64,000 nucleotides of DNA, from positions 39,520 to 103,519 of the forward strand of contig JAJZKO010000002.1 in the NCBI GenBank assembly GCA_021850805.1. The letters run 5' to 3'. Shown here piece after piece: positions 8,927 through 31,313 of this stretch (its first letter is position 1; the number at the start of each line of letters is the position of its first letter). The stretch is from Candidatus Micrarchaeota archaeon (GTDB lineage: Archaea > Micrarchaeota > Micrarchaeia > Micrarchaeales > CABMGC01). Both the position numbers and the translations under genes were made by a program. The notes beneath the pieces were generated by a model, which made no database searches, was not told the DNA's origin, and was given only the letters and a program-made list of their open reading frames with translations.

Positions 8927-8973
8927 CTAATAAAGGTATGCGTGTAATCATAAATGCTAAAAGCGGTGTATAA

Positions 8974-9198: not shown

Positions 9199-9212
9199 TA
9201 TATACCTCTGTT

Positions 9213-9310
9213 GGGCTTCTGGCGCAACGGTAGCGCGCCTGCATGGCATGCAGGAGGTTGCGGGTTCGAAACCGGCGATTACCTCGCCTGAGAAAATCCC
9301 GCGAAGTCCA
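9213..9310 (+). tRNA. tRNA-Ala (anticodon GGC) with ~26-nt insert in the T-loop
   Basis: - Acceptor stem GGGCTTC/GAAGTCC with a G3:U70 pair and A73.
- D-arm GCGC-AACGGTA-GCGC.
- Anticodon arm CCTGC-ATGGCAT-GCAGG.
- The T-stem GCGGG (9260-9264) pairs with CCCGC (9298-9302), but 33 nt lie between them instead of 7.
- Removing about 9271-9296 restores the T-loop TTCGAAT. Confidence 0.8.
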
Positions 9311-9344
9311 TCACCTTTTCTGCACGACACATCAGAAGGCAACA

Positions 9345-10952: not shown

Positions 10953-11103
10953 TTTCTCTTCTCTGCAAAAGTTTTAAATACTTACTAATCAAAAGCAACA
11001 TTCCCAGCCATGGCAGCCAATAAATATAGCAAATTGCTGTAAATTTCAGCTAATAATTGATATTTTCAATAAAAAGTTATAAAAAAACAAAACATATATA
11101 TAC

Positions 11104-11589
11104 ATGCATGCATATAATCTTAGCATGCAGAGTGTCGAGCGTATAGTTATACGCTACACAAGCACGCCGCAGATAAATGACCTCACAGAGCTTTCGGTAT
11201 GGCTATGCATGGTGTTTGGCCTATCCAACGGGCAGGATCGCAGTGAAGCGAGGATCCTAGAAAGCATAATACAGAAGAGCATAACTGGAGATGGAATAAC
11301 GAGCAAGGAGATAAGCGAGACTGTAAAAGTCCCAAGAAGCACGGTAATATACCACCTTAATAGGTTTCTATCTTCTGGCCTCATAGTGCGCAGCGGAAGG
11401 AAGTATTTCCTCAGGTCTAACGATATGGCAAGCACGATAGAGGAGATAGAGTCCGACATGCTACGCGAATTCAACAGGCTAATACACATGGCAGAAAGAT
11501 TTGACCAGATAATGGGTGAAAACTCTCATGGACGAGGAAAAGAACCAAAAGCAGGCCGACAGCGCCAAAGGGCAGTCGCAGGCAGATAA
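11104..11589 (+). CDS. winged-helix transcriptional regulator upstream of grpE
   Basis: HTH-like segment GITSKEISETVKVPRSTVIYHLNRFLSSGLIVRSGRKYFL. The N-terminal extent is uncertain because internal Met codons exist. The 3' end overlaps the grpE ORF by about 74 nt in another frame. Confidence 0.55.
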   Translation: MHAYNLSMQSVERIVIRYTSTPQINDLTELSVWLCMVFGLSNGQDRSEARILESIIQKSITGDGITSKEISETVKVPRSTVIYHLNRFLSSGLIVRSGRKYFLRSNDMASTIEEIESDMLREFNRLIHMAERFDQIMGENSHGRGKEPKAGRQRQRAVAGR

Positions 11590-12097
11590 ACAGCAACCGA
11601 AGGAGGAAGCTGCACGGGCTCAGGAGCAGCCAAAGCCTGCACAGGCAGGCAATCCCGCGGAAGAGCTGAAGGAGCTCAGCGACAGGCACCTCCGCCTAGC
11701 GGCAGAGTTTGACAATTACAAAAAGAGGACGGCGAAGGATATAGAAAACTCAAAGAATATAGGCAAGGCTGAGATGCTAAGCAAAATCCTGCCGATACTG
11801 GATGAGTTTGAGATAGCCATAGACGCAATGGCGAAGAAGGGAGAGACGGACAGAGGCATGGAACTGATATTCTCAAACTTCGTGAGTGCGCTTAAGGGCG
11901 CCGGCTTGCAGGAGATAACAGCGGAGGGCAGTTCAGATCCGTACAAGCACGAGATACTCATGGCACGAGAGTCTGAAGAGGAAGACGGGAAGATACTCGA
12001 GGTCGTGCGGAAAGGCTATACGTTCAACGGCATAATGATACGCCCCGCTTCAGTAATCGTATCGAAAAAACAGGAATCAAGAAAAGATGATAAATAG
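11516..12097 (+). CDS. grpE: nucleotide exchange factor GrpE
   Basis: 193 aa. It contains [13 protein letters not shown] and a low-complexity N-terminus. The start is GTG at 11516 or ATG at 11528. dnaK follows. Confidence 0.9.
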
Positions 12098-12105
12098 GTG
12101 AAAAT

Positions 12106-13974
12106 ATGAAGATCATAGGAATAGATCTGGGAACATCAAACTCTGCAGCTTCAGTTCTTGAAGGTGGCAGACCAGTGCTCATACCGAGCTCCGAGGGTAC
12201 GTCATTATATGGGAAGTCATTCCCAAGCTACGTAGCATTTACCAAAGACGGCCAGCGGCTTGTAGGCGAGCCCGCGAAGCGCCAGGCAGTGGCAAATCCG
12301 GATGGTACGGTAAATGCATTCAAGAGAAAGATGGGAACCAACTACAAGTATAAGATATTCGGGAAGGAGTATACCCCGCAAGAATTATCCGCAATGGTGC
12401 TCCAGAAGATAAAGAAGGATGCGGAAGCCTTCCTCGGCGAAGAGGTAAAGAAGGCGGTGATAACCGTGCCTGCGTACTTCGACGATAACCAGCGCCAGGC
12501 AACAAAAGATGCAGGCGAGATAGCAGGCCTTGAAGTAGTCAGGCTTGTAAACGAGCCAACAGCAGCCTCACTGGCATACGGCCTTGACAAGCAGTCCAAG
12601 GAGATGAAGATACTTGTATACGACTTCGGAGGAGGAACCCTCGACGTCACAGTGATGGAATTCGGCAACGGTGTGTTCGAGGTAAAGTCGACAAGCGGCG
12701 ATACCCAGCTTGGAGGTACTGATATGGATTTCGCAATAGTCAATTTCCTACTAGGCGAGATAAAGAAGCAGCATAACGTTGATATCTCAAAGGACAATCA
12801 AGCCATGCAGCGCTTGAGGGAGGCTGCTGAGAAGGCAAAGATAGAGCTCTCAACAGTCCTGAGCAGCGACATAAACCTTCCCTTCCTCACGATGGGACCT
12901 GGCAATGCGCCCATACACTTCACATACTCGCTGACCAGGGCGAAGCTTGAGGATATCGTGGTCAGCATCGTAGAAAAGACAACGAAGCCTGTAATGCAGG
13001 CGCTCAAGGATGCGAAGCTTGAACCTAATGACATAAGCAAGATAATACTAGTTGGCGGACCTACAAGGATGCCAATAGTGCAGAGATATGTAGAGCAGCT
13101 CCTCGGGAAGAAGATAGAGCGCGGAGTGGATCCGATGGAAGCAGTGGCGTTCGGCGCCGCCATACAGGGAGGTGTGCTGACTGGCGAGGTAAAAGACATA
13201 GTGCTCCTCGACGTGACACCGCTCTCGCTGGGCTTGGAGACCTACGGCGGAGTAATGACAAAACTCATAGAGAGGAACACCACGATACCTGTAAAGAAGA
13301 CGCAAATCTTCACCACTGCAGAGGACAATCAGCCTGCTGTTGACATAAACATACTCCAAGGCGAGCGTGCGATGGCCAAATCAAACATAGAGCTTGGTAA
13401 ATTCCAGCTTACCGGTCTTCCTCCATCCCCGCGCGGCACTCCACAGATAGAAGTAACCTTCGATATAGACGCAAACGGGATACTGCATGTGAGCGCAAAA
13501 GACAAAGCTACCGGCAAGGAGCAGTCAATGAAAGTTGCCGCGCCCAATAAGATGAGCAGGGAAGAAATCGACAAAAAGATAAAGGAAGCGGAGGAGGCGG
13601 CGGATCAGGACAAGAAAGATCTAGAGCGGATACAGATGAAGAATGAGGCTGAAGCCACCGTATACACTACTGAGAGAACAATAAAGGAATTTAAGGATAA
13701 GGTTCCAAAGGAAATAATAGAAAAGGTCGAGAATGCGAACAATGCCCTGAAAGAGGCAATAAAGGCTGATAATACGGAGAGCATCGAAGGCAAGCTTAAT
13801 GAGCTGAAGAGCGTGCTGCAGGAGATAGGCTCCAGCATATACAAGGGCGGTGGTCCAGGAGAGTCTCCTGATGGGCAGGCCCAGGCTCAAGGCCCAAGCT
13901 CAGATGGAGCTCCGGGTCCAGATGGAGGCCAGCCTGGTGACACTATAAACACCGACTTCCAAGTCAAAAAATAG
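12106..13974 (+). CDS. dnaK: Hsp70 chaperone DnaK
   Basis: 622 aa. It contains [18 protein letters not shown] and VGGPTRMP. Confidence 0.97.
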
Positions 13975-13982
13975 TGTAGCGT

Positions 13983-15110
13983 ATGGATAAAGACTACTAC
14001 GATGTCCTCGGAGTGCAGAAATCCGCCTCCCAGGAAGAGATAAAGAAGGCCTACAGGGAACTGGCCCTAAAATACCATCCCGACAGGAACAAAGCCCCTG
14101 ATGCCGAGGAGAAATTCAAGGAGATAAACGAAGCATATGCTGTCCTCAGCGACCCCCAAAAGAGGACGCAGTACGACACATACGGTCCGGATAAGTTCGG
14201 GCAGAGGTATTCACAGGAGGATATCTTCAGGGGCTTCAACTTCGAAGACATATTCAAGGATATGGGAATAAACATAAACTTCGGAGGTTTCGAGAGCAGC
14301 GAAATATTCGGCAATCTCTTCGGAATGCCGCAGGCGCATGCAAGGGGGGATATAGGCCAGAACATACTCTACCGCATGGACCTGTCCCTAGAGGAGGCAG
14401 TTCTCGGAACACAAAAGGAGATAAACATAAGGCATGTAAAGAAATGCCAGAGCTGCGGCGGCTCAGGAGGAGATAAAGGTGCGAAGATGGTGCAGTGCAG
14501 CGCATGCCACGGATCAGGATACATTGCCATAGTTAGGAACTCCATGTTCGGGCGAGTGCAGACAATGTCGGCATGTGCGCGCTGTGGTGGCAGAGGCAAG
14601 TACTACGATAAAAAATGCAAGGTGTGCTCCGGTAAAGGCGGCGTACCTGCAACCGAGACTGTAGAGGTAAGAATTCCTGAGGGTGTAGAGGACGGCATGC
14701 GCCTCCGTCTCCAAGGCATGGGCGATTTCGGGAAGGATGGGAGCGGCGACCTATACGTGGAGGTCCATACGCTCGAGAGCGATAGGTTCAAGCGTGACGG
14801 CGACGACATAATAAGCGAAGTCAGCTTGCCTTTCTATACGGCCATACTGGGCGGCATCGTGCAGGCGCAAACAATACGCGGAAAGCATGAGATAGAGATA
14901 AGCCCAGGTACAGAACCTGGAAAGCGCATAATCATTAAAGGCGCAGGATCAAAGAGATTCAGGCACGGTGGATATGGGGACCACGTGTTCATAATAAAAG
15001 TGGAGATACCAAAGTCGCTCTCACCGGAGGAGAAGGAACTGATAAGCAGGTATAAGGATCTCAACGAGAAGCATCACGACGAATCCCGAAAGAAGTTCGG
15101 CATATTCTAG
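13983..15110 (+). CDS. dnaJ: Hsp40 co-chaperone DnaJ
   Basis: 375 aa. The J domain carries DYYDVLGV and HPD. There are four CxxCxGxG zinc motifs: [24 protein letters not shown] and CKVCSGKG. Confidence 0.95.
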
Positions 15111-16111
15111 ATGCTCCTTCCCTCCTTGCCTATCCTTGACAGAGTAAAGAGGAGCACTGCCATAACCAGGATGCCCATCGCAAAGAACTCTGATGCTGTC
15201 ACAATGCTCATGCCCTTTGCCAAATACGCTATGCCAAGCGCAATGTTGACAAAGGCAAACAGTGGCGGTATAGCAGGCAGGCCTATCATATACTTCTTAA
15301 GCAGCACCATTGTGGCTATAAGCCCTGCAAAGGCACCCACCACAACGAAATCTCCAAAGAACGTGCTTGCGAATCCGACATAAGCACCTACAGCAACCAT
15401 CAGAGGCACGGCAAGATCTCCGCTTCCAAGCATAATCTGCGATACGACGGGAAATCTCCCTTCCCTTGCATAATCCCTTATTATCTTATCCTTGTACATG
15501 CCTTCCTTCTTGAGTCTGTTAAGTATCTCTCCCTTCTTTTCCTTGAAGTAGCCCTTTGGCATTATCTCCACCTCAGAAGACCCTATGAGGAAAGCCAGAT
15601 TGAGGTTCAGGGCACCCTTCGCAAGCGCAAGCATGTGCTTGGTAACGAACACTGCAATGTAATCGTAAAGGGCTATTATCGCCATAAATGCGTACGCAAA
15701 CTGGAAACCGGAGATGCCAAGCGCAAGCCCCACTCCCATGCTTGCAAGGACAGCTGCGGTATTTCTCAGCGACTGCTTTTTATTTTTTGCAATAACCAAG
15801 CCAACCGCTAGCGCAGCCGATACAAGCGCTGCATATGTGTAATCTGCGGGACTCACAACAGATCCGATAACAAGGAAGAAGAGGAAGGATGTGGCTATCA
15901 GTATCACCGCAGCCTCAAAGAGCCTGTAGAGTATCTGCCCCTTGACCCTCTTGAAGAGCCATATGAGGGCAAAACTCACGACAAAAAGATAGACAATGAA
16001 TATCAGGAAGAATCCAGGAGTCGCCTGCGGCGTACCTGCAGACTGCAGGTTTTGACCCAGCGCATATATTGGAAAGGCAAACTCCGCAACGAGCAGACCG
16101 CCAAACTGCAC
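15107..16111 (-). CDS. presenilin/signal-peptide-peptidase-like intramembrane aspartyl protease (A22 family)
   Basis: 334 aa polytopic membrane protein. It has [13 protein letters not shown] (YD motif), [10 protein letters not shown] (GxGD motif) and a PAL-like GLPAIPP near the C-terminus. Confidence 0.7.
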
Positions 16112-16185
16112 TATAAGGAAAAGCGTAATTATGTTTGCCAGCTGCCTATACTCTATTATCCTTTCCAGACCAACACCGAATGCAT

Positions 16186-18249
16186 CTACTCCTCATCCCT
16201 CCGTACAGTCTTATATACCCCTGGCTTCGGGCAGAAGATGTCTCCCGAGCGCTCAAGTTCATATATATACTTCTCTGCCTGCCCCTTCTCCACTCCCTGC
16301 TTCTCAGCCTCTTCAAGTATCCTCACTATTTTCGCGGACCCCCCTTCCTGGCTCTCGAGGCTCTTAACTATGCCCATGATTATATTTATCTTGTTTACCT
16401 TTTCCCTTGGCATGCCTGTTATCAGCGTGTCTATATCCTTCCTGCCTCCCCTATCAACCGCAAGGGTGTTAAGCATAGTCTCAAAGAGCGATATGGCGAG
16501 CTCAGCATCTTTAACCTCTACAGTATTGGCCAGCCTGGACTTGGCACTGGCCTCTGCCATCCTTACAAGCCCCTCTATCTGCCTTGGGGTCATGGGCACA
16601 GCACCTTCCTTTATCCCGAGCGTCCTGAGTTCCACATAATACTCTTCTATCCTCTTGCTGGATTCCTGCGTAAGCCTGGGCTTTACCATCTTCTTTGCAT
16701 ATGCTATGTACTTCCTCAATATCTCCGAATCAAGCGGCGGAAGAGCCACCTGCTCATAATCCTTCATGTCTGCAAGCTGCTCTGCAGCAGCCTTATGCTG
16801 TATTAATATATGCCTTGCTATCACCCTGTCCTCCTCAGGATCCATCACGTCCCTTATTGGGAATATTAAGTCAAACCTCGAGAGCAGTGCAGGAGGTATG
16901 TCAAACTGGTCAGCTGGATAGTCATTGGGGTTGAATCTCCCGTACTTTGGATTTGCAGCCGCAAGCACCGAAGTCTTTGCGTTAAATTTCGCGACTATTC
17001 CTGCCTTAGCAACGCTTATAGTCTGAGACTCAAGGGCCTCGAGAAGCCCTGACTTGTCATCTGCGGTTATCTTGTCGAATTCGTCTATGCTGACCTCCCC
17101 TCCGGCGCCAAGCACAAGAGCCCCGGCCTTAAGTGTCCATCCTCCCTCGGCAAATTCATCACGCTCAGCAGTTGCCGTAAGGCCTGCAGATGTGGTTGAT
17201 TTGCCGCTTACGTAGATTCCCTTCGGGACAAGTGCAGTAACTGCCTGAAGCAATCTTGTCTTAGCGCTTCCAGGGTCTCCAATCAGCATTATATGTATGT
17301 CGCTCCTTATGGGCCCTCCATCTATAAGCTTCTTGTCAGGTGTCCCGCTGAAGAGCTGCAGGGCCAGCGCCTTCTTTATATCCTCATGACCGTATATTGA
17401 AGGCGCTATGGATTTGGCTATCTTCTGGAATATCTGCGGATCCTTTGACATCTCTATTATCCGCGCCTCGTCCTCCTTGGTTATGTCTATCTCTGCAAAT
17501 TCCTTCTGCTTGTGTACTACCGAGATGCTGTCCAAGAACATGGTGAATAGCACTTTGTCCTCCTTGCCCCTGAATGTCTTCCTTGGCTTTATCCTGAGTA
17601 TCCCAGTTATGCTTATCCTGTCACCAGGTATAACCGTATTTACCATGTCGTCCTCGAGCCATACCTCAAGCTGCCACGTTGGGGTATTCCCGCGCAGCCT
17701 CTCGAGCGGATCCTGAACTGCTATCCTCTGGAGATTTATGAACTCGGATTCTTCATTGACCTGTTTCAGCGACCTGCGCCTGCACTGCGGGCATATCTCC
17801 TGAACGTTGTCCCTGTCTATCTTGACCTTGAGTACTGTGGAGCAGAACCCGCACCTGAATACGCCTACATTGACCTTTGGTGTTATCTCTGACCTCTTGA
17901 CCACCAGAGAGTCGAGGGTAAGGAGCTTACCTATATACTGGGATCCGACATCCTGTATAAGCGGCATTCCTGCATCAGAGCCAAAGAACCTTGCATATAC
18001 AGGTTCCGTAAGCTGCTGGCCAGGGCTGAAGGAGGAGAGTGCGGCATTTGCTATCGGAATGACCTCGTCAGGGTTGTCCACCATGCTATCTGCAAGCTCT
18101 ATGTCAAACTTCTGCAGGTCGCTTATGTTAGGATTCAGGCTCCTCTTTGTCGGGTAGGAAACGAAGAGCTCGTTTATTGCATCTATATAGTATAAATTGA
18201 AGAAATCGACAAATTTCTCCTTGAAGTGTTCCTTGACAATGTCGTCCAT
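16186..18249 (-). CDS. mcm: replicative helicase MCM
   Basis: 687 aa. It has a zinc motif CGFC...CPQC, Walker A GDPGSAKT, Walker B IDEFDK and the arginine finger SRFDL. Its length indicates there is no intein. Confidence 0.95.
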   Translation of the reverse strand: MDDIVKEHFKEKFVDFFNLYYIDAINELFVSYPTKRSLNPNISDLQKFDIELADSMVDNPDEVIPIANAALSSFSPGQQLTEPVYARFFGSDAGMPLIQDVGSQYIGKLLTLDSLVVKRSEITPKVNVGVFRCGFCSTVLKVKIDRDNVQEICPQCRRRSLKQVNEESEFINLQRIAVQDPLERLRGNTPTWQLEVWLEDDMVNTVIPGDRISITGILRIKPRKTFRGKEDKVLFTMFLDSISVVHKQKEFAEIDITKEDEARIIEMSKDPQIFQKIAKSIAPSIYGHEDIKKALALQLFSGTPDKKLIDGGPIRSDIHIMLIGDPGSAKTRLLQAVTALVPKGIYVSGKSTTSAGLTATAERDEFAEGGWTLKAGALVLGAGGEVSIDEFDKITADDKSGLLEALESQTISVAKAGIVAKFNAKTSVLAAANPKYGRFNPNDYPADQFDIPPALLSRFDLIFPIRDVMDPEEDRVIARHILIQHKAAAEQLADMKDYEQVALPPLDSEILRKYIAYAKKMVKPRLTQESSKRIEEYYVELRTLGIKEGAVPMTPRQIEGLVRMAEASAKSRLANTVEVKDAELAISLFETMLNTLAVDRGGRKDIDTLITGMPREKVNKINIIMGIVKSLESQEGGSAKIVRILEEAEKQGVEKGQAEKYIYELERSGDIFCPKPGVYKTVRRDEE

Positions 18250-18346
18250 TATAAAACCCTGAGATATAGAGCAAAGAGGTTTCTCATGGCAGGATAATAA
18301 ATGTTTCTACGAATATAAAGATACATAAAATAAGAAGGGAGCTCCA

Positions 18347-19804
18347 GTGCAGAAATTCTATATAACCACCCCGATATACTATGTAAACGACAAGCCGCAC
18401 ATAGGGCACGCGTACACTACTGTAGCTGCTGACGTTCTTGCAAGATGGCACAGGATACGGGGCGATGAAGTATTCTTCCTCACCGGAACGGATGAGCACG
18501 GTGAAAAGATAAGCGAAGCAGCCAGGAAAAACTCTACAACCCCGAAGGAGTTTGTTGACAGCGTGGTTAAAAAATACATTGACACGTGGAAGATTCTGCA
18601 GATATCCAATGACGATTTCATAAGGACAAGCCAGGAGAGGCACGAGAAAGCTGTGGCCGAGTTTATAAAAAGAATGGACAAATCAGGCGATATATATAAG
18701 GGAGAGTATGAGGGCTGGTACTGCACCCCGGATGAGACATTTGTCACAGAGACGCAGCTCAAAGACGGAAAGTGCCCGTTCTGCGGCAGGGAGGTAAGAC
18801 GGATAAAGGAGGAATCATATTTCTTCAGGATGAGCGGATACAGGGACAGGCTTCTAGAACTATATAAGTCGAACCCTTCATTCCTCTCTCCTGATTTCCG
18901 CTCTGAAGAGATACTCAATAGGATCAACGCGGGCCTTAAGGATCTGAGCATAACCCGCACTGCGGTAAGCTGGGGAATACCGTTTCCACTTGACACAAAA
19001 CACACCATATACGTATGGGTCGAGGCGCTGATAAATTACATAAGCGCCCTCGGCCTCGGCACGGAGAAGTTTAGCGCGTTTTGGCCCGCAGACGTACATC
19101 TGGTAGGAAAGGAGATAAACTGGTTCCATTCGGTCATATGGCCTGCAATGCTCATGTCCGCAGGATTCGATATCCCTGATATGGTATTTGCGCATGGCTG
19201 GTGGACAATAGAGGGCACCAAGATGTCTAAATCCCTCGGCAATGCCGTAGATCCGGTGGAGATGTCAAGAAAATATTCTTCAGATGCATTCCGCTATTTC
19301 CTCCTAAGGGAGATGCCCCTCGGGCAGGATGGCGATTTCTCAGAAAGGGCAATGAAAGCAAGGATAAACAGCGAACTTGCATCGGAGATGGGCAATCTGC
19401 TGCACCGCACAATATCCATAGCCGAAAAATACGACGGCAAGATAAGAGGCCGGCCTGAACTTGATAAAACCCTGAACATCAGTGAGATAGATAGAAAGGT
19501 ATGCACGCTTGATACGTTCGGGGCCCTGGAAGAGATATGGAGGTTTGTGAAGGAGGCGAACAAGTATGTTAACCAGAAAGAGCCGTGGCATCTGGAAGGG
19601 GAAGAGCTCAGTGAGGTGCTCTGCAACCTGCTTGAGGCCTGCAGGGTGATATCCATACTAATCTACCCATTCATGCCTTCCACATCAAGCGAGATGGCAA
19701 AACAGCTCTCATGCACAGAGAAGCCTGAGCTGAAAAACTGCAGTTTCAGGAATGAAGCTCCGAGGCCAAAGAAGGGCAGCCTCCTATTCAAAAAATACGA
19801 GTAA
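18347..19804 (+). CDS. metG: methionyl-tRNA synthetase (core enzyme, no C-terminal tRNA-binding domain)
   Basis: 485 aa. It contains PHIGHAY (HIGH), KMSKSLGN and the zinc knuckle CTPDE...CPFCG. Confidence 0.93.
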   Translation: MQKFYITTPIYYVNDKPHIGHAYTTVAADVLARWHRIRGDEVFFLTGTDEHGEKISEAARKNSTTPKEFVDSVVKKYIDTWKILQISNDDFIRTSQERHEKAVAEFIKRMDKSGDIYKGEYEGWYCTPDETFVTETQLKDGKCPFCGREVRRIKEESYFFRMSGYRDRLLELYKSNPSFLSPDFRSEEILNRINAGLKDLSITRTAVSWGIPFPLDTKHTIYVWVEALINYISALGLGTEKFSAFWPADVHLVGKEINWFHSVIWPAMLMSAGFDIPDMVFAHGWWTIEGTKMSKSLGNAVDPVEMSRKYSSDAFRYFLLREMPLGQDGDFSERAMKARINSELASEMGNLLHRTISIAEKYDGKIRGRPELDKTLNISEIDRKVCTLDTFGALEEIWRFVKEANKYVNQKEPWHLEGEELSEVLCNLLEACRVISILIYPFMPSTSSEMAKQLSCTEKPELKNCSFRNEAPRPKKGSLLFKKYE

Positions 19805-19832: not shown

Positions 19833-20366
19833 CTAAGTATACTTTGCAGTTAGGCTGACTACCTGCTCTATCCTGTTTGAGAATCCGGAAGTGCCCTCTA
19901 TCGTGTAATTTAGCCATAAGTACCCTGTATAATAATTTCCAAGTGGCCCAGCAGCTATCCCTCCGCTGTTGAAGCAGTACACGTTGAATGTATCGTATGT
20001 ATCGGTATAAACAACAGGTGCGTTAAATGTTGCCGGATAGTAAAGTGAATTTGCGGTAACCCAGGAGTTGCCGTAGAGCGGACCATTACCTGATGAATTG
20101 AACTGGCTGGAGCAGGCAATCCCATTTATCTTCATATTTCCGCCAAGGGCCTGTGCCAGGTTTATGGCCAATACGCCATTGCTGCTAAGCGAGTAAAATC
20201 CGCAAGAAAAGCCAGGGACTGACGCACAGTTCGGGCTCGCCTGTGCCGGCGCATTCACGCTCACGCTGAATATTATGAAAAGGGATATGGAGAGTACCAG
20301 AATTCCGAAACCGAGGGAAACAAGGTAATCGACTGCAGATTGCAGCCTTAGATTGCCGCGCTTCAT
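19833..20366 (-). CDS. pilin-like secreted protein with class III (type IV prepilin-like) signal peptide
   Basis: From ATG 20366 the N-terminus is MKRGNLRLQSAVDYLVSLGFGILVL. This is a basic leader, then Q, then a hydrophobic helix, in the style of QxSxEYL. The ORF track start (TTG at 20387) is less likely. Confidence 0.6.
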   Translation of the reverse strand: MKRGNLRLQSAVDYLVSLGFGILVLSISLFIIFSVSVNAPAQASPNCASVPGFSCGFYSLSSNGVLAINLAQALGGNMKINGIACSSQFNSSGNGPLYGNSWVTANSLYYPATFNAPVVYTDTYDTFNVYCFNSGGIAAGPLGNYYTGYLWLNYTIEGTSGFSNRIEQVVSLTAKYT

Positions 20367-20387
20367 TGCGTTTCTTGAGAGATCCAA

Positions 20388-23518: not shown

Positions 23519-24913
23519 CTAACCGGCAAAGCAGGATTCATACTGCAGCCCGCTAGGGAAGGAAGAGGTTGCAATCCAATTGCCAACACCGCTGGAAGTA
23601 AGCGCGGCGTAATATACGTTAGAAGTAAGTCCTGCAGGTGTGTACCCTCCGACGCAGTATATGTAGTTATTAACCACTGCGCATGACTCCCCACCAACTT
23701 GGAGAGGATAGCTGCTACTCTGTTTCCATGCTCCTATCCCGCCGCTTCCTACAGCTGCATAATAAACGTTTCCAGTCTCACCTACTGAAGCCCCACTGTT
23801 GGTGTACCCTCCGACGCAATAAACAATGTTTCCGCTTATCACGCACGGCTGCCCTGCTATGGTAATTGGATACGGCTGCGTAGCAAGCCAGTTTCCATCA
23901 GCGCCTGAAGCGATACTTGCATAATAAGTGTCTGTTGTGAATACACTTGCTCCATTGGATCCGCCTATGCAGTATAAATATCCAAGATATGTAACGCATG
24001 ATGTGCCTGTTATCTGCGCTATGGGATATGGGGTCCCTGCGCTCCATCCTCCAAGCCCCGAGGCTCCCGCAGAGGAGTAGAAGATATCATTTGTGTAAGC
24101 ACTGTCGTAATATCCTCCCACGCAATACAAATCACCAGTATAGCTTCCAAATGCGCACTCTTCCCCGACAACGCTTCCAGGATAACTGGCAGCTGTATCC
24201 CATCCTTGTACACCGGTATAAGCCGATGAGATTGGCGCGTAGTATACGGAATTTGAGGATGTGGATCCGCTTCCTCCCACGCAAAAGACCTCCGCGCCGT
24301 TAGAGGCACACGATTGGTCCTGCACATTAGCAGGATATGTTACCGGTGACTTCTTCCATGTCTGAAGCCCGTTCTGTGTCACACCGCCATAATAATCATA
24401 GGTGGTGCCTGTACTTCCAGTATCCCCTCCGACACAATATACAAAGCCCTGTGACGTAGTAGATACAGTTGCACTGATGCTTGCGATCATCTGGCTGAGG
24501 CCTGTCTGAGAGCCCTCAGAATATACAATCCATAAATATCCATTGAAGTGCGAACCTATTGCTGAATTACTCAATGGACACGAGAAAGAAAGGTTATACG
24601 TCTGCCCGGCAAGAAAATTAAGGGCAACAGGAGAGTAAGATGTCGGGGGTGTCTGGTTCGTGGTGCAAGCAATTCCCTGAACAGTGATTCCCGTACCTAC
24701 ATATCCTATGTCTGCGGTAAGTATTCCTCCGCTTGAAAGTTCCGGATTACCACACTTGAATCCTGAATATGCAACGCATGCTGTCGGCAGGCCCGATCCG
24801 CTAAAAACCCCCAGCTCAAAGAGCGCGCCCAGAACCACAGCAATGATTAGTATCGCCCATCCATACGTCATCAGGTACTCCATGGCGCTCTGGATCCTGA
24901 GGTAAGGAACCAT
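23519..24913 (-). CDS. class III signal peptide (pilin-like) protein fused to six Kelch-like beta-propeller repeats
   Basis: The N-terminus is MVPYLRIQSAMEYLMTYGWAILIIAVVLGALFELGVF. The C-terminal two thirds contain six repeats, each ending in [YF]C[VI]GG (FVYCVGG, VFCVGG, LYCVGG, LYCIGG, VYCVGG, IYCVGG). Each repeat also has a YYA...G...W....YP motif. Confidence 0.8.
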   Translation of the reverse strand: MVPYLRIQSAMEYLMTYGWAILIIAVVLGALFELGVFSGSGLPTACVAYSGFKCGNPELSSGGILTADIGYVGTGITVQGIACTTNQTPPTSYSPVALNFLAGQTYNLSFSCPLSNSAIGSHFNGYLWIVYSEGSQTGLSQMIASISATVSTTSQGFVYCVGGDTGSTGTTYDYYGGVTQNGLQTWKKSPVTYPANVQDQSCASNGAEVFCVGGSGSTSSNSVYYAPISSAYTGVQGWDTAASYPGSVVGEECAFGSYTGDLYCVGGYYDSAYTNDIFYSSAGASGLGGWSAGTPYPIAQITGTSCVTYLGYLYCIGGSNGASVFTTDTYYASIASGADGNWLATQPYPITIAGQPCVISGNIVYCVGGYTNSGASVGETGNVYYAAVGSGGIGAWKQSSSYPLQVGGESCAVVNNYIYCVGGYTPAGLTSNVYYAALTSSGVGNWIATSSFPSGLQYESCFAG

Positions 24914-24944: not shown

Positions 24945-26195
24945 CTATCTCTTGATCCTGCCATGGCTCGAGGATAAATCCTTCGCAGCCTCAGCGCAGA
25001 GAAGGTTAAGCTCTCCTGCAAGGCAGACCGCAGCTATAACCTCAGCAAGCTGCAGTCTTGATGTTCCCTCAGGATCATTATCCCCGTACAGACCCATCAT
25101 CTTCAAAACTTCCATCTGTGTCTCTCTCTTAGTGCCGCCACCATAAGTCCCTACCTCTATTGAAGGCAGATAACACGAGATATACAGACCGCCTCTTACA
25201 GCAGTAGCATCGGTAAGAGCCTGCGCTCCTTCAACAACCTGTGCCATATCCTGCCCGAGGGCTAGATACAAAGAGGCAAGCATGTTTGCAACATGCCCGT
25301 TAAAACCATGTGAACCGGCAAGTGCCGAACCGCTCAGGTTCTTTGACTTGTTCAGATCTGCCACTGCTTCAGGCTTAAGTCCAAATCTCTTCTCAAGAAG
25401 CGCTGCAGGTATGAACATATCTACAATCACCGAAACTCCCCTGCCTTCTATAAAATTTATCAAAGCGGGTTTTTTGTCTGAGCACATGTTTCCCGACTCA
25501 CTTACTATCCCTGCCTCTATCCCCTTGCTCTTGCCGAACTCAATTACGATTGCATCAGATGCCATCTTGGAGGCTATGGTGACCATATTCATTCCCATCG
25601 CCGCCCCAGTTGTAGCCCTGAAACGGAGATGCACATCCCTTCCTGATGGGTAAGGCCTGCATTCTATAAACCTCCCATGCCTGGTGCTCCTGGAGAATGC
25701 CTTCCTGAGTATCTCCTGCCCTGCAGCGCTGGACACGAAAGCTGAGAATGCCGCAGCCTCCTTGACGTTTCCGGTCCTTATAAGCACATCTCTAGTCATA
25801 CCATCCCTTATTACTGCGGCATTTATCCCGCCTGCCTCATTCGATGCAGATATTCCCCTGGATATTCCCGCGACGAGTTTGCCCTCCGTAGTCGCAAGAA
25901 GTATGGGATAACTTCTCGAGGCATGCATACCATTGACCTTTATCTCCCCTGCATATCCAAGCGGTACGTGCACTGCTCCAACAGGGTTCTCTATATTCCT
26001 GTCAACAGCATCATTGAAGTCGAGGATTCCTGATCCTACGGCAGAGAGGCTGCATCCGAACTTCTTTTCCAGATAAACCCTCCTTATCATAGTTGCTGTA
26101 TTGCTGTCAATGCCAAGGGACTTCTCCAGGGCGTAAAGTTTTAATTCCCCGTTCTCCATCCTCTTCAACGCCTCATCAATATTTTTCTTATCCAT
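24945..26195 (-). CDS. hmgA: HMG-CoA reductase, class I type
   Basis: 416 aa. It contains ENPVG, LATTEGKLVAG (catalytic Glu), GAAMGMNM, CSDKKPA (catalytic Asp), VGTYGGGT and a C-terminal SSSHG (His). Confidence 0.9.
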   Translation of the reverse strand: MDKKNIDEALKRMENGELKLYALEKSLGIDSNTATMIRRVYLEKKFGCSLSAVGSGILDFNDAVDRNIENPVGAVHVPLGYAGEIKVNGMHASRSYPILLATTEGKLVAGISRGISASNEAGGINAAVIRDGMTRDVLIRTGNVKEAAAFSAFVSSAAGQEILRKAFSRSTRHGRFIECRPYPSGRDVHLRFRATTGAAMGMNMVTIASKMASDAIVIEFGKSKGIEAGIVSESGNMCSDKKPALINFIEGRGVSVIVDMFIPAALLEKRFGLKPEAVADLNKSKNLSGSALAGSHGFNGHVANMLASLYLALGQDMAQVVEGAQALTDATAVRGGLYISCYLPSIEVGTYGGGTKRETQMEVLKMMGLYGDNDPEGTSRLQLAEVIAAVCLAGELNLLCAEAAKDLSSSHGRIKR

Positions 26196-26204: not shown

Positions 26205-27650
26205 TCATATAAGTTTCTCTTTTGTATTTGCCAGCCCATCATTATAAGCCAGCCTGTGCTGATTCAGGCCTCCTGCAAGAGCCGCAGCCGCTGTAAATGC
26301 CGCAACACGGATAGAATTAGATCCAGGGGCTGCATCTCTGCGCAGACCCATTATCGCTTCGCATTCCTTTCTTGTCGGGGAGTCCAACCCTTCGCTCCCC
26401 CACTCGAAATTGGCAAGTGTAACAGAGTACATTATGCCTGATGCGCCATTCACCTTATAGGGCTCCGCATCAGTAACGCATGATGAAGATAATATCGGAG
26501 GAGAGCCCGCGACTGCAGCCATCACTCCAGCTATTATCTCCGGCTCCATTCCACACATATGCGCTCCAGCTCCCAATCTCTCCCTCCAGAGGTGATTCTT
26601 AGAGTAACTCATAATATGCATATCCTCCGCACCGCCGTGTCCTCCTCTTCCGGAGATTTCGTGCACTATATATGATTCTGGAAGGAAGACAGACGCTTTA
26701 ACCTTCCTGCCGCGTATGCTCTTGGCAGAAACTGCCATGTCCCCGTCTTCGCCTCCGGCCAGCCAGAGGCTCCTGTGGGGTATCTTTTCCGCATCAAGTT
26801 TCGCAGTAAGGAAGTTCCTCAGTAGTATGCCTGTAGCATAGGTAGCTATCTCATGCCCGTAAAAATCCCCGTGCATCCTGTATATGAAATTCACCGAGAG
26901 CTCATGCCTATCTCCATTCTTCGCATAAGAGCACGTTATCTCTCCAAGCACACCACCTTTCTGCGAGAGTATCCTGTTAGCAGCATCGTATATATCGGAT
27001 AGGAATTCCGCTGAAGTCATCGCTCTGCGCGCTGCCTCCGCATCTTCAAAATTTTCGAACATGAAAGTCGGCGATCTAGTCGCCACAGAATCCCTTTCCG
27101 CATAAACTTTCACCGTTCCGCTTGAACCGTAATCAACAAGCTTCTTAATCATCTTTATGCCAAAGCTCACTCCTTCAGTAACTCCACCCCTAAAATTACA
27201 CATCGGTATAAATTCCGAGGCGCCAAAACCAGCTTCCTTGTGCCCGTTTTCATTTACCTCAACCTCGATGCTTACCGGCCCCGCAATTGTTATCCTGTCC
27301 CCGCCTATGTATTGCACATATTCCGGTTTTCCTGACTCTGTGGCAAGATCCCAGTGGGCAGAATTCCTCAGGTAGTCAAGCCTGACTCCGTTTCCGGATG
27401 CTTCCATATGCCTCTCCACTCCCCGTCTAAGCACTTCTCCGGCGTAGTACTGATAAAAAGCGGCAATCTCATTCTCTGCGAATGCAGAAGTATATGCTCT
27501 TACCCTGCCCTGTTCGAACCTCTTCTCGATCTCCTGTGGAACCTTGTGGAGCGGCACACGCCCCCTGAAAACTCCCTCTGCAAGGGAGTCAAGGACGCCT
27601 TCAAGCTTCTTTCTCTGCGCAGGGTACCTTCTCTCTATCTCGTAAGCCAT
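26205..27650 (-). CDS. divergent HMG-CoA-reductase-fold paralogue lacking canonical catalytic residues; function unknown
   Basis: 481 aa. By eye it aligns along its length to the adjacent hmgA. Examples are VATRSPTFMFENFEDAEAA against the HMGR GMTR.P..RF motif, IRGRKVKASVFLPE against IEGRGVSVIVDMFIP, and EAIMGL...AAFTAAAALAGGLN against EVLKMMGL...IAAVCLAGELN. However, TTEG is replaced by NFRG, DAMGMNM by RMHGDFYG, and SDKK by VSAKS. Confidence 0.6.
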   Translation of the reverse strand: MAYEIERRYPAQRKKLEGVLDSLAEGVFRGRVPLHKVPQEIEKRFEQGRVRAYTSAFAENEIAAFYQYYAGEVLRRGVERHMEASGNGVRLDYLRNSAHWDLATESGKPEYVQYIGGDRITIAGPVSIEVEVNENGHKEAGFGASEFIPMCNFRGGVTEGVSFGIKMIKKLVDYGSSGTVKVYAERDSVATRSPTFMFENFEDAEAARRAMTSAEFLSDIYDAANRILSQKGGVLGEITCSYAKNGDRHELSVNFIYRMHGDFYGHEIATYATGILLRNFLTAKLDAEKIPHRSLWLAGGEDGDMAVSAKSIRGRKVKASVFLPESYIVHEISGRGGHGGAEDMHIMSYSKNHLWRERLGAGAHMCGMEPEIIAGVMAAVAGSPPILSSSCVTDAEPYKVNGASGIMYSVTLANFEWGSEGLDSPTRKECEAIMGLRRDAAPGSNSIRVAAFTAAAALAGGLNQHRLAYNDGLANTKEKLI

Positions 27651-27654: not shown

Positions 27655-28530
27655 TCACATTTCCTCTTCTATAAGCCGAACGGTCTCCCTTGGCGTAGAT
27701 CCGAATGGTATTCCCGCCTTCTTGAATGCAGCGACCTTCTCTTCTATACTCCCGCCGCTTCCAGAGACTATTGCACCAGCATGGCCCATCTTCCTGCCCA
27801 TAGGCGCATACCTGCCTGCCATATATGCTACAACTGGCTTTTTTATCAATCCATCCAATACCATCGATGCTACTTCCTCCTCCTGCGAACCGCCTATCTC
27901 GCCTACGAGCAATATTGCTTTAGTATCACTATCTTCCTCGAAGAGCCTGCATATCTGCGAGAACCTCAAGCCCTGCACCGGATCTCCCCCAACTCCTACG
28001 CATGTGGATTCTCCAAGCCCTGCCTCAGACATTCGTGAAGCCATCTCATACATCAGCGTGCCGCTCCTTGAGGCTATCCCTATCTTTCCAGGAGAAAAAA
28101 CGGCATTAGGCACAAAGCCTATCTTAACCTTTAGCATGGGATCTATTATCCCTGCAGTATTAGGCCCTATAAGAACGGCTCCTGACCTTCTCGCAGCAGA
28201 GACCATCCGTACCTCGCTGTGCAACGGTATGTTTTCTGGAGGAGCCACAACCAGCTTTATCCCGGCGTTGAAGGCTTCAAGCGCCGCGTCGAGCGCAGCC
28301 GCAGGAGGCACAAAAAGAACAGAAGAATTTGCATCCGTAGCATCGACAGCTTCTGATACAGTATCGAATACCGGCACTCCATTGACATCCTTGCCTCCTG
28401 CACCAGGCCTCACCCCTCCTACTACGCGTGTGCCATACTCTAGCATGGTTATCGCATGCATGCTGCCTGCCCTGCCAGTTATACCCTGCACTATGACCTT
28501 CGTATCCTTATTTAGTATTATTCCCATCAA
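27655..28530 (-). CDS. succinyl-CoA synthetase alpha-subunit-like protein (CoA-binding, phosphohistidine subunit)
   Basis: 291 aa. It contains KVIVQGITGRAGSMH and GVPVFDTV, plus the phosphohistidine loop MGHAGAIVSG. It overlaps the beta-like gene by 4 nt. Confidence 0.8.
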   Translation of the reverse strand: MMGIILNKDTKVIVQGITGRAGSMHAITMLEYGTRVVGGVRPGAGGKDVNGVPVFDTVSEAVDATDANSSVLFVPPAAALDAALEAFNAGIKLVVAPPENIPLHSEVRMVSAARRSGAVLIGPNTAGIIDPMLKVKIGFVPNAVFSPGKIGIASRSGTLMYEMASRMSEAGLGESTCVGVGGDPVQGLRFSQICRLFEEDSDTKAILLVGEIGGSQEEEVASMVLDGLIKKPVVAYMAGRYAPMGRKMGHAGAIVSGSGGSIEEKVAAFKKAGIPFGSTPRETVRLIEEEM

Positions 28531-29597
28531 GCATCAACCGCCGCCTTCACCGCACTCTCCAGGTCTGCAAAATTACGTATGCCACACCTTAGCAGAACAT
28601 TCTCGCCGCTTCTAACCATGTTTCCAGCCATTCTGACGACAATCTTGAATCCTGGCTTCCTATCCTCTACAAATCTGCGCACGCCTTCCGCCATCTCGTC
28701 GCACCTGTTCAGCCCTGCAAATAGGTTCACCAGCATCGCCTTCATGGATCCGCGTTCGCTGAGAATGCAGCACGCTTCGTACAAGCCGTCCCCATCAACC
28801 TGCGCCAGGTCTAAGAAGTTCGCAGGTTTTCCACCGGCCATGCTTATCATATCCAGTGTGGCCATCGCAAGCCCTGCACCACTGCATACCAGACCTATAT
28901 CCCCGCCGATATCAACATAAGACCATCCCTTCTTCCACATCCTTGCTTCTATCCCATCCTTTACCTCATTGGTGCGTATCTGCGTACTATCAACCGATAT
29001 AACCGCATCAAGAGCTATCAGCTTCCCGCTGCGGTCCACCCCTGCAGGGTTTATCTCCACCGTCTCGGCGCCGTAATCACGGAATATCTTGTAAATTCCC
29101 ATAATAAGCCTGCCTGCCTCTTCCCTCTCGGCAATACCCGCTGCCTCTATAAGCCTGTGCGCTTCCTCAACACCAAACCCGTCATCAAGATCAAAATAGT
29201 GCCTTTCCAAGGAGGCCTTTCCATCCTCAACGTTGATGCCGCCATTACCGGCTATTGCAACTGCCTTCGCACTTGAGAAATCAAGCGAGAATGCGAAGTA
29301 ATATTCCTTAGAAGCATCCACGCGCTCCTCAATTATAAGGCTGTCTACAACATGCCCGTCCACGTTCAAACCTAGCATCCGTGCAGAGGCATCTGCAGCC
29401 TCATCCTCGGATGAGACAAAAGAGACAAGCCCGCGCTTTCCCCTTCCCTTTATCCCAATAGGTTTTATTACTGCACTACTTCCCAAAGCCCTGAATCTTT
29501 GAACTGCTTCTGCAACTGTGAATACCTCAAAGCCCATGGGAATGCGTATCCCTTCTTTCTTAAAAATCGCTTTTCCATCAGTCTCCTTTATATTCAC
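28527..29597 (-). CDS. succinyl-CoA synthetase beta-subunit-like ATP-grasp protein
   Basis: 356 aa. The N-terminus MNIKETDGKAIFKKEGIRIP...VIKPIGIKGRGKRG resembles the ATP-grasp domain of SucC/ADP-forming ligases. It is somewhat shorter than typical SucC. The substrate cannot be read from the sequence. Confidence 0.7.
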   Translation of the reverse strand: MNIKETDGKAIFKKEGIRIPMGFEVFTVAEAVQRFRALGSSAVIKPIGIKGRGKRGLVSFVSSEDEAADASARMLGLNVDGHVVDSLIIEERVDASKEYYFAFSLDFSSAKAVAIAGNGGINVEDGKASLERHYFDLDDGFGVEEAHRLIEAAGIAEREEAGRLIMGIYKIFRDYGAETVEINPAGVDRSGKLIALDAVISVDSTQIRTNEVKDGIEARMWKKGWSYVDIGGDIGLVCSGAGLAMATLDMISMAGGKPANFLDLAQVDGDGLYEACCILSERGSMKAMLVNLFAGLNRCDEMAEGVRRFVEDRKPGFKIVVRMAGNMVRSGENVLLRCGIRNFADLESAVKAAVDA

Positions 29598-29736: not shown

Positions 29737-30774
29737 TCATACGCGGCCTTTCAGGAACGCTGCCCCTCCTCTCAGCGAGACGCTCACAGGTGTGCATTCA
29801 AATCCTTCCTTCCTAATACACCTGCAAGTTTCCTCATTGCATAGTATTATTGCCATTCCTCCTCCGCCGCCTCCGCTGAGCTTGGCTCCATACGCGCCGC
29901 AGGCCTTAGCGCAAGAGACTAGCCTGTCCAGACCATCGCTCGAGACCCCAAGCCTAACAAGTGCATCGTGATTTGCATACATCTCCTTGCCGACAGCATC
30001 AAAATCACCTACTCTAATCGCTTCTATGCCCCTCCTTGCACATGAGTCTATGCTATCAAACAGTCTCTCTGCATAAGGGGTATCATTTTCATGCAGCCTT
30101 GAGACTATTCCCACAGTCTCCGCTGTGCTCTTTTTAGGTCCTGTATCTACAATCGCAATGTCCATTCCTGCGCCGAGCTCTTCCCTGCGTACTCCGCTTC
30201 CCTTGCTGTAGCTTATGCATCCGCCGTAGAAAGAAGTGGGCACGTCTATCCTCCCGGCATTCTCATTTCTATGTATTATCCTGTCGCCGTCAAGCGCGCG
30301 CTCTATCACCTCGCCTTCAGTGTAAGAGCCTTCATAGAGATTTGCTGCAGCAACAGAGAGCGCAACAGAGCACGCAGCGCTGCTGGCCAGCCCCTTCTGC
30401 ACCGGTATCATAGAGCGTATCTCGAATCTTTTCGGGCCGATGCTGCCACCATCAGCACAGTACCTGCCAATGATAGTGGCGTAAGGCAGGAGCCTTGAAT
30501 CCACCCTTCGTTTAAAATTATCGACATACGCGTTTATCGAGTCACGTGCAGAATATTCCGATGCAATATCCAAGAGCTCTGCATCCGAGAATACTGTTTC
30601 CAATGAGAAATCCGGAAGGGATATGTGCACCTTGCCTTCATTGTCATTTGCATCTACCGAAACGCTTGAATACAAACTCACGGCTATCGCGGCAGAGAGC
30701 CTGCCATAAACTACTGCATGTTCACCAAACAGCTTGATTACGCCTGGAGCCTGCACAACGGCCAAAGGAACCAC
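29737..30774 (-). CDS. mvk: mevalonate kinase (GHMP kinase family)
   Basis: 345 aa. It contains APGVIKLFGEHAVVYG, the GHMP motif GLASSAA, and a C-terminal GAKLSGGGGGG. Confidence 0.8.
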   Translation of the reverse strand: MVPLAVVQAPGVIKLFGEHAVVYGRLSAAIAVSLYSSVSVDANDNEGKVHISLPDFSLETVFSDAELLDIASEYSARDSINAYVDNFKRRVDSRLLPYATIIGRYCADGGSIGPKRFEIRSMIPVQKGLASSAACSVALSVAAANLYEGSYTEGEVIERALDGDRIIHRNENAGRIDVPTSFYGGCISYSKGSGVRREELGAGMDIAIVDTGPKKSTAETVGIVSRLHENDTPYAERLFDSIDSCARRGIEAIRVGDFDAVGKEMYANHDALVRLGVSSDGLDRLVSCAKACGAYGAKLSGGGGGGMAIILCNEETCRCIRKEGFECTPVSVSLRGGAAFLKGRV

Positions 30775-30788: not shown

Positions 30789-31313
30789 TTATTTCCTGGC
30801 TAACATTATATTTAGCTTTGCCTTTAGCCTGCCTGCTATCTCATCCAGCTCCTTGTTTCCCGAGGAGAAGCCTATGAGATCGACAGCAAAAGATGCAAAA
30901 TTAGCACGCTCATAAGTACCCATGCTGAACATATGCACACTAGACGCGCCCTCTTCTATGACTTTGATTAAGCTAATCTCTGCCTTGCGCAGGGAAGGCG
31001 AAACGGCAGAGCTATAGTTGCTCTTTTCCGTTTCTATCTTCTGGAAAAACTCTATCGCATATATCGGTGACATTCTTCCGGATTCGGAGAGCTCTTGCGC
31101 TCTTTTCATGGCAATGTCAAAGGTCTCCTCCCTGAGCCTTATGGACTTCTGATCATAGCCTCCGGTCTTCGACAATGCCCCTATCAATTTAAGCAACGCC
31201 AGCGCATCAGCCGAACAGGCAGTGTCCATCAACCTATTAAAATCCTCCTTCGGAGGGGATTTCAGATAAGGAGACTGTTGGATAAAACCATCCAATATAA
31301 CATCTCTTTTCAC
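30789..31313 (-). CDS. hypothetical protein (helical, no recognised motif)
   Basis: 174-aa ORF with no competing long ORF. It is divergent from the next hypothetical gene. Confidence 0.5.
   Translation of the reverse strand: MKRDVILDGFIQQSPYLKSPPKEDFNRLMDTACSADALALLKLIGALSKTGGYDQKSIRLREETFDIAMKRAQELSESGRMSPIYAIEFFQKIETEKSNYSSAVSPSLRKAEISLIKVIEEGASSVHMFSMGTYERANFASFAVDLIGFSSGNKELDEIAGRLKAKLNIMLARK

Follow-up and report, generated by a model that had tools for sequence, protein, structure and literature searches.

An HMG-CoA reductase-fold protein with replaced catalytic residues, encoded beside a succinyl-CoA synthetase-like ligase and HMG-CoA reductase in DPANN archaea

Introduction

In a 64,000-nucleotide stretch of a Candidatus Micrarchaeota archaeon (assembly GCA_021850805.1, contig JAJZKO010000002.1, positions 39,520 to 103,519 of the forward strand; hereafter the window), an intact open reading frame (ORF) at 26205..27650 on the minus strand encodes a 481-residue protein with the fold of class I 3-hydroxy-3-methylglutaryl-CoA (HMG-CoA) reductase (HMGR), in which the reductase residues are replaced. 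We call it the HMGR-like protein. Its gene is packed between the genes of a ligase resembling succinyl-CoA synthetase (SCS) and the gene of a canonical HMGR. This linkage to ligase and HMGR, kept across about ten lineages, is the decisive context of the gene and the strongest clue to its function. We tentatively favour, with slightly more doubt than belief, a reading of these sequences in which the HMGR-fold protein would catalyse a non-redox step in partnership with its own ADP-forming CoA ligase, directly upstream of HMGR, and feed the mevalonate pathway.

Almost all archaea depend on the mevalonate pathway alone for their membrane lipids, and its thiolase, HMG-CoA synthase (HMGCS) and HMGR steps are regarded as settled. 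HMGR, the target of the statins, has a fold that ranks among the most studied in biochemistry. With the four-gene unit of two ligase subunits, rewired HMGR-fold protein and HMGR, this fold would gain a new enzyme family, and the unit would indicate another entry into the pathway, driven by ATP; if true, it would also illustrate how an oxidoreductase scaffold can be adopted in nature for non-redox chemistry. The question bears on how the reduced-genome symbiotic DPANN archaea get isoprenoid precursors, and on whether C4-C6 acids are scavenged from their hosts. In these genomes, annotations as 'sucCD' are not to be read as enzymes of the tricarboxylic acid (TCA) cycle.

The 481-residue protein belongs to the HMGR fold

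The original prediction for this DNA had described the 481-residue protein as a divergent HMGR-fold paralogue of the neighbouring HMGR, from four sequence blocks paired by eye, and had proposed profile searches and structure prediction as checks. Both approaches bore out the fold. Pfam HMG-CoA_red (PF00368) matched residues 127-467 with 33.4 bits (E=3.3e-8), above its gathering cut-off of 27. When the family profile was compared with 25 class I HMGRs by hhalign, the two aligned over 394 columns (query 20-481 to HMGR 6-415) with a probability of 99.1% and E=1e-18, and all four blocks were paired exactly as by eye. An AlphaFold2 model built from a 46-sequence alignment that included HMGRs reached a pLDDT of 91 and a pTM of 0.92. 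Its best PDB matches by Foldseek were the class I HMGRs of M. thermolithotrophicus and human (6HR7, 1HWI; E about 2e-19), and the target-normalised TM scores to HMGR structures were 0.70-0.75 at 16-20% identity. The 46-row alignment was needed for this model, as six family sequences alone gave an unusable prediction (pLDDT 52); the model therefore depends on the homology call, while the hhalign result is independent of it. These results place the protein in the HMGR fold superfamily.

The relationship lies at the limit of detection and can be seen only by Pfam, profile-profile and structure comparison. BLASTP between the protein and the neighbouring HMGR gave a marginal match (E=0.007) in a C-terminal block, the NCBIfam scan of the protein returned no match, and hmmsearch with the family profile against PDB sequences retrieved no HMGR. 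Several family members score below the PF00368 gathering threshold.

The family and class I HMGR (EC 1.1.1.34; PF00368; PDB 6HR7, 1DQA) share the fold of the N, L and S domains over a full-length profile alignment. The family keeps R590, K735, R702/G703, several structural glycines and probably D690 (human numbering), and both proteins are encoded in mevalonate operons. Their identity is only about 19%. The term paralogue was loose, since the family is ancient and deep-branching; a recent duplicate of the neighbouring HMGR was ruled out on the same grounds. The prediction of about 110 extra N-terminal residues did not hold. The protein can be aligned from residue 20 and has an expanded helical N-domain (by about 45 residues), with a net extra length of 65 residues.

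Reductase residues are replaced in a conserved pocket

The catalytic tetrad of HMGR consists of Glu559, Lys691, Asp767 and His866 in human numbering (PMC11948995). HMG is contacted by Arg590, Ser684, Asp690, Lys691, Lys692 and Asn755, with a salt bridge from Lys735 (PMC9500038), and NADPH is bound by the motifs DAMGMNM and GTVGGGT (PMC6872958). We mapped these positions with hhalign and with an independent MAFFT alignment, and the counts below refer to 12 family members. Glu559 is replaced by R154 (10/12), Asp767 by Gly or Pro (G382 in the window protein) and His866 by K477 (9/12). DAMGMNM reads GDFYGHE. The NADPH glycine loop, GTxGGGT in HMGR, reads GSEGLDS and thus holds acidic residues, among them the invariant E420, and the S/T-R site of the 2'-phosphate is rewritten as well. 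Further replacements are Arg568 by F/Y/M/A, Met657-Asn658 by H266-E267 (H266 invariant), Ser684 by A298, His752 by M368 and Asn755 by E371 (12/12). In contrast, the two carboxylate anchors are kept, Arg590 as R192 (12/12) and Lys735 as K351 (10/12).

Around Lys691 the two alignments disagree, and the cis-loop of the family is 3-5 residues shorter than that of HMGR. MAFFT places M/L305 at Lys691 and the invariant D304 at Asp690, and hhalign places A309 at Lys691, with the mostly conserved K310 at Lys692. Lys691 is therefore ambiguous, the sole member of the tetrad that could not be scored. The original prediction that all catalytic positions of class I HMGR had changed was upheld for E559, N755, D767 and H866, and D690 is matched by D304 in MAFFT. 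The context of the C-terminal His, which had been called unalignable, can in fact be aligned (LAGGLNQHRL...TK versus LAGELNLL...SSH). Of the features of a functional HMGR, the Glu, Asp and His of the tetrad and both NADPH motifs are missing, and the anchors Arg590 and Lys735 are present. These replacements support the view that the protein is no longer a reductase, and agree with the earlier judgement that it was unlikely to reduce HMG-CoA.

The only characterised HMGR homologue found that no longer reduces HMG-CoA is FcrA, a fatty acyl-CoA reductase derived from HMGR in Halobacteriales and bacteria, which likewise occurs as a second HMGR-family gene in archaea (PMC11948995). FcrA retains the four catalytic residues and NADPH dependence, loses the HMG-anchoring lysine and often carries an N-terminal lipid-carrier domain (PMC11948995). 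The present family is its opposite, with the carboxylate anchor retained and the catalytic and NADPH residues gone. An identity with FcrA was rejected, with the tetrad replaced and the anchoring lysine retained.

FcrA also bears on whether the HMGR-like protein could still be a thioester reductase, acting on HMG-CoA or on the product of the ligase with a different catalytic set or hydride donor. It demonstrates that the substrate can change on the HMGR fold, which is a dedicated scaffold for four-electron thioester reduction. Ligase followed by reductase is moreover a common pathway pattern. SCS-like ligases paired with acyl-CoA reductases are known from sulfoacetate degradation. However, the substrate of FcrA changed with Glu, Lys, Asp, His and NADPH kept, whereas the present family has changed E559, N755, D767, H866, the NADPH motifs and the 2'-phosphate site, and in the window just 9 nt separate the HMGR-like gene from that of a fully canonical HMGR. 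We consider this explanation very improbable.

Despite the lost residues, the gene is not decaying. The ratio of nonsynonymous to synonymous substitutions (dN/dS) of the HMGR-like gene was 0.083 against a 90%-identical orthologue, compared with 0.067 for HMGR, 0.098 for SCS-alpha, 0.133 for SCS-beta and 0.165 for mevalonate kinase (MVK) of the same operon. The family is under purifying selection, and a pseudogene is ruled out by this value. Thirty-seven residues are invariant among ten members at 29-38% identity. They include 11 of the 20 positions equivalent to catalytic or ligand-binding residues of HMGR, as against 26 of 461 elsewhere (odds ratio 20, p=1.3e-8), and 6 of these 11 pocket positions hold a residue that differs from that of HMGR. 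No Cys is invariant among the ten. Judged by the alignment, the former active-site pocket is the most constrained region of the protein, and has been re-specified. The conserved polar set comprises R154, H266/E267, D302, D304, R313, R315, K351, E371, E416, E420 and K477. It maps as a new polar cluster to the junction of the thioester and nicotinamide sites of HMGR, beside the kept anchors R192 and K351.

The original prediction had left a regulatory pseudo-enzyme, a scaffold and a new chemistry side by side. An enzyme of new chemistry is favoured over the passive roles because the former pocket is the most conserved part and dN/dS is 0.08. A pseudo-enzyme or scaffold would bind HMG-CoA, HMG, mevalonate or CoA without turnover and tether or regulate the ligase, HMGR or both, for example in a hetero-oligomer, as DUF35 scaffolds thiolase and HMGCS. 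Such a role would suit a protein that has lost the tetrad and NADPH motifs while R590 and K735 are kept, that is always encoded with partner enzymes and whose expanded helical N-domain could be a docking surface. We nevertheless regard it as unlikely. Conservation falls on charged residues inside the former pocket (R154, H266, D302, D304, E371, E420), which is typical of catalysis or metal binding and not of docking, and the core of H266, D302, D304, R313, R315 and E371 stays unchanged even in the aligned members of a distant bacterial clade, whose loci lack SCS and HMGR genes nearby. Since the HMGR site spans the dimer interface, two hybrid, defective sites would arise in a heterodimer with HMGR. 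Finally, one locus with the ligase and HMGR-like genes has no adjacent HMGR (L008), and in another the ligase genes separate the HMGR-like gene from HMGR (L011).

The gene travels with SCS-like ligase and HMGR genes

In the window, the HMGR-like gene is the third tightly packed gene of a run on the minus strand, in the order MVK, SCS-beta-like, SCS-alpha-like, HMGR-like and HMGR. MVK (29737..30774; 345 aa; TIGR00549 182.4 bits, cut-off 163) lies 139 nt upstream of the ligase genes, a position that is kept in loci L003-L007. The gene of the SCS-beta-like ATP-grasp subunit (28527..29597; 356 aa; ATP-grasp and CoA-ligase domains, with changed loops at the presumed acid site) overlaps by 4 nt with that of the SCS-alpha-like subunit (27655..28530; 291 aa), which has a CoA-binding domain and the GHAGA phospho-histidine motif. 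A gap of 4 nt separates the SCS-alpha-like stop from the HMGR-like start, and the canonical class I HMGR (24945..26195; 416 aa; Pfam 339.8 bits, TIGR00533 391 bits) follows 9 nt downstream. This HMGR retains E104, D240-K241-K242, N304, D316 and H411, which are invariant columns of the HMGR alignment.

Wherever the contig is long enough, SCS-beta-like and SCS-alpha-like genes adjoin the HMGR-like gene. We found this trio in the window and in L002, L003-L007, L008, L010, L011, L012-14, L015, L016/17, L019 and L020. Metagenome-assembled genomes with the trio include GCA_041825655.1 and GCA_038730225.1, those that hold contigs JAJZOF010000020.1 and JAJZIU010000006.1, and the Aenigmarchaeota genome of MBI4015160.1. 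Canonical HMGR is directly adjacent in all of them except L008, with the contig of L020 ending before that point. In L001, where just 27 nt remain on the upstream side, the HMGR-like gene is directly followed by an ORF for class I HMGR. The co-occurrence with hmgA and the SCS-like genes, which had been proposed for checking, is thus obligatory for the ligase and near-obligatory for HMGR over about ten lineages. The order in L011 is HMGR-like, beta, alpha and HMGR; because this order differs, the linkage has survived a rearrangement.

Many trio loci also carry MVK, MVD, PMK, IDI and polyprenyl synthase genes. In L002 the cluster extends into MVK, an MVD-like gene, a third GHMP kinase and a Nudix gene. 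In L016, which is from Aenigmarchaeota, the trio and HMGR stand together with a polyprenyl synthase, MVD, three GHMP kinases and a type-2 IDI (2700-18394). The same cluster has two Nudix genes, a HAD hydrolase and a bacterial-type NAD-dependent glycerol-3-phosphate dehydrogenase (GpsA), which is unusual for an archaeon given the divide between glycerol-1-phosphate and glycerol-3-phosphate lipids. In L012 (2571-2822), and also in L013 and L014, an 83-aa ORF lies between the SCS-alpha and HMGR-like genes. It occurs in this lineage only, resembles a winged-helix regulator by sequence and has no counterpart in the window; a split-off N-terminus of the HMGR-like protein was considered for it and rejected, as it is a lineage-specific protein.

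Two relatives that have no HMGR-like gene have HMGRs 60-62% identical to that of the window. In both, a POR-HMGCS-thiolase-DUF35 operon lies directly upstream of HMGR and is transcribed divergently, and DUF92, RadA, TP-methylase and tRNA-splicing endonuclease genes lie downstream. L011 shares these downstream genes, but upstream of its HMGR stand the genes for the HMGR-like protein, SCS-beta and SCS-alpha. Searching with the thiolase, HMGCS, DUF35 and POR of L048 by tblastn found nothing in the 64-kb window or in any trio locus. These results are suggestive of a positional replacement of the canonical upper pathway by the trio. The five-gene operon of POR (alpha/gamma, beta), HMGCS, thiolase and DUF35, divergent next to HMGR at L048:4631-9893 and at the P0014 locus, would couple acetyl-CoA supply to the canonical upper mevalonate pathway.

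The ligase departs from succinyl-CoA synthetase in its beta subunit

The two subunits differ in how closely they follow SCS. The SCS-alpha-like protein passes the NF004230 equivalog cut-off for SCS alpha (354.9 versus 336) and has the GHAGA motif. In contrast, the beta subunit, with 221.9 bits, falls below the SCS equivalog cut-off of 370 and lacks the canonical loops. In the window protein, CSGAGL stands for GNGAGL, FLDL-AQVDG for FLDIGGGA and LFAGLNRCD for IFGGI[VT]RxD. All ten linked beta subunits carry [CS]SGAGL, FLDx-[AT]Q[VM]D and FAGLNRCD (FAGLNDCG in L011) at these three loops, which are otherwise invariant in SCS. From SCS and ACLY structures, we take the three loops to line the site of the carboxylate, the phosphate and the phospho-His; because of this presumed location, the ligase has likely changed its acid substrate.

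In a survey of 43 genomes, all but one of the Micrarchaeota genomes had no SCS (PMC5864196). As SCS is mostly missing from the phylum, the SCS-like genes are not its TCA-cycle enzyme. An ordinary TCA-cycle SCS was rejected on this ground together with the failed beta cut-off, the three altered loops and the setting in mevalonate operons.

ATP-citrate lyase (ACL) and the CCS and CCL pair offer an analogy in modular logic and in gene order, with SCS-beta-like and SCS-alpha-like parts followed by a protein that binds a 3-hydroxy-dicarboxylyl-CoA. Citryl-CoA differs from HMG-CoA solely in having a carboxylate in place of the methyl group. The partner there has the citrate-synthase fold, and here the HMGR fold. 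The window beta and alpha subunits scored 170 and 299 bits against SCS structures (the latter against archaeal SCS alpha structures), as against 64-66 and 88-158 bits with ACL or CCS. ACL and CCS-CCL were rejected as identities by the HMGR-fold partner, by a Pfam Citrate_synth_N score of 47.8 below the cut-off of 83 and by ACL/CCS scores far below those of SCS. We regard the HMGR-like family as a branch of the HMGR fold that has probably taken on a new function, together with a ligase of its own.

The close similarity of the ligase to true SCS could also mean that the trio has no part in mevalonate synthesis. It would then serve as ligase and partner for the CoA ester of another dicarboxylate or hydroxy acid (succinyl-, malyl-, citramalyl- or citryl-CoA) or harvest ATP from an acyl-CoA, with the proximity to HMGR a mark of ancestry by duplication. 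The L008 trio, which stands beside a Zn-dependent alcohol dehydrogenase/MDR gene without HMGR, and the L016 cluster, which already has HMGCS, would fit with this. Yet at least 8 lineages, the rearranged L011 among them, keep the adjacency to HMGR although the identity of their HMGR-like proteins is down to 29-38%; a remnant of duplication would not last nearly so long. The clusters are otherwise purely mevalonate/isoprenoid operons, the HMG-specific anchors K735 and R590 are retained, and the beta acid loops are unlike those of SCS. We give this explanation little credence, less than the scaffold. In L008 itself, the zinc-type alcohol dehydrogenase/MDR oxidoreductase gene (6848-7810, minus strand) is divergent from the SCS-beta gene, and a 335-aa protein with an AsnC-type helix-turn-helix domain is encoded downstream on the opposite strand.

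A possible ATP-driven entry into the mevalonate pathway

In the model that we favour, the HMGR-like protein would be the third component of a three-gene module with an SCS-type ligase made of a beta subunit with a remodelled acid site and a phospho-His alpha subunit. The ligase would spend ATP to make the CoA thioester of a carboxylic acid other than succinate. The HMGR-like protein would then perform a non-redox step on or with this thioester, either C-C chemistry of the aldol/Claisen type or a CoA transfer, without a covalent Cys; covalent catalysis in the style of thiolase or HMGCS is excluded because no Cys is conserved. If flux runs in this direction, as we infer, the product, most plausibly (S)-HMG-CoA, would pass to the HMGR encoded next to it and on into the mevalonate pathway. 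The kept anchors R192 (Arg590) and K351 (Lys735), and probably D304 (Asp690), would grip the free-carboxylate end of an HMG-like acyl group, and the thioester/nicotinamide site would have been refitted with R154, H266/E267, D302, E371, E420 and K477.

Three chemistries can be put forward, each of them speculative and held with much lower confidence than the general model. In the first, HMG-CoA would form by an aldol-type reaction of acetyl-CoA with acetoacetate or acetoacetyl-CoA. Here D304 would handle the 3-OH, the group that its equivalent D690 contacts in HMGR, and the thioester would be polarised by R154, by K477 or by a metal. The second would be the activation of free HMG, with CoA transfer between its two prochiral arms. 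The third would be an ATP-driven bypass of the endergonic thiolase step, which would also explain the co-occurrence with HMGCS in L016.

In related DPANN genomes, the archaeal thiolase/HMGCS/DUF35 complex is encoded at the equivalent position directly upstream of HMGR and delivers HMG-CoA to it. It has no relationship to the trio in sequence or fold, and it uses no ATP, whereas the trio contains an ATP-dependent ligase. In the genomes that carry it, the module probably takes the place of this system, wholly or in part. The strongest form of the proposal is that the trio constitutes an ATP-dependent upper mevalonate pathway to (S)-HMG-CoA without thiolase, HMGCS or DUF35, in which the HMGR scaffold would have been turned into a metal- or acid-base-dependent enzyme of C-C bond formation or CoA transfer. 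Acetoacetate or acetoacetyl-CoA plus acetyl-CoA would give HMG-CoA, or free HMG would be activated stereospecifically. This form we consider rather unlikely.

Several points weigh against the favoured model. L016 carries a HMGCS of bacterial/eukaryotic type (PF01154/PF08540) beside the trio, without thiolase, so the module cannot simply replace HMGCS there and could at most take over the thiolase step or provide a parallel route. In L008, no HMGR adjoins the trio. The searches for thiolase, HMGCS and DUF35 covered the window and the trio loci, and these genes may be encoded elsewhere in the same organisms. The residue map comes from sequence alignments that disagree around Lys691, the AlphaFold2 model was built with HMGRs in its alignment, and the presumed place of the beta loops at the acid site is carried over from SCS and ACLY structures.

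The family is very rare

A search of 5.8 billion proteins returned five clusters of the family, with identities of 86-98% for three of them and 33-36% for the other two. Among 1.84 billion cluster representatives, an exhaustive profile search gave only 8 with E<1e-30, a further protein search with a wider alignment added a single protein, and a pattern scan of one genome per species for 185,579 species found two Micrarchaeota metagenome-assembled genomes. Two further core loci came from a scan of JGI metagenomes. Together the family spans about ten lineages of Micrarchaeota and Aenigmarchaeota. Public records name its members 'hypothetical protein', as for MEM0201550.1 of Micrarchaeaceae and MBI4015160.1 of Aenigmarchaeota, and we found no curated model for the family or the module. 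The literature yielded no publication on the family, on a link between HMGR-like and SCS-like proteins, on gaps in the upper pathway of DPANN archaea or on ADP-forming activation of acetoacetate; only the work on FcrA was relevant. The earlier remark that no described family with these features was known to its author is in line with these records, the sole characterised off-shoot of HMGR, FcrA, being one that keeps the tetrad.

More abundant HMGR-like proteins of about 450 aa, 22-28% identical to the family, form a distant clade, which we call clade B (L021-L047, for example L027:9659-11014 and L028:10004-11362). Their neighbouring genes look bacterial. P0133, P0134 and P0137 of this clade have a CxxC...CxxC insert in the N-domain and share the invariant core H266, D302, D304, R313, R315 and E371; R154 and K351 are missing from P0133 and P0134. 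No SCS or HMGR neighbours and no clear functional lead were found in the clade B loci. Some of them adjoin a GHMP kinase, a 582-aa esterase-like protein and an ABC transporter, and others radical-SAM and PilZ genes.

Other genes of the window

The surroundings of the run are archaeal, with genes for ribosomal proteins S2, S9 and L13, RNA polymerase subunits, MCM, RadA and the thermosome. Immediately upstream of MVK lies an ORF of 174 aa (30789-31313, minus strand), which is 75-76% identical in the orthologous loci L003-L007. It had no Pfam match, its only NCBIfam match was at chance level (E=0.004), and the more distant trio loci yielded no counterpart.

Directly downstream of HMGR, a 464-aa protein (23519-24913, minus strand) has an N-terminus that resembles the class III signal peptide of archaeal pilins, and its orthologues gave weak matches to Kelch repeats. 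A second protein with such an N-terminus is encoded at 19833-20387 on the minus strand. Both may be cell-surface or attachment proteins of the symbiont.

A RimK-like ATP-grasp ligase (42278-43174, plus strand), a glutamate-cysteine ligase of the GCS2 type (58358-59818, minus strand) and a thioredoxin-NHL repeat protein (53093-54616, minus strand) give a hint of low-molecular-weight thiol metabolism. The window also encodes a geranylgeranyl-reductase-like flavoprotein (48885-49991, plus strand), which is compatible with an organism that makes or modifies its own isoprenoid lipids.

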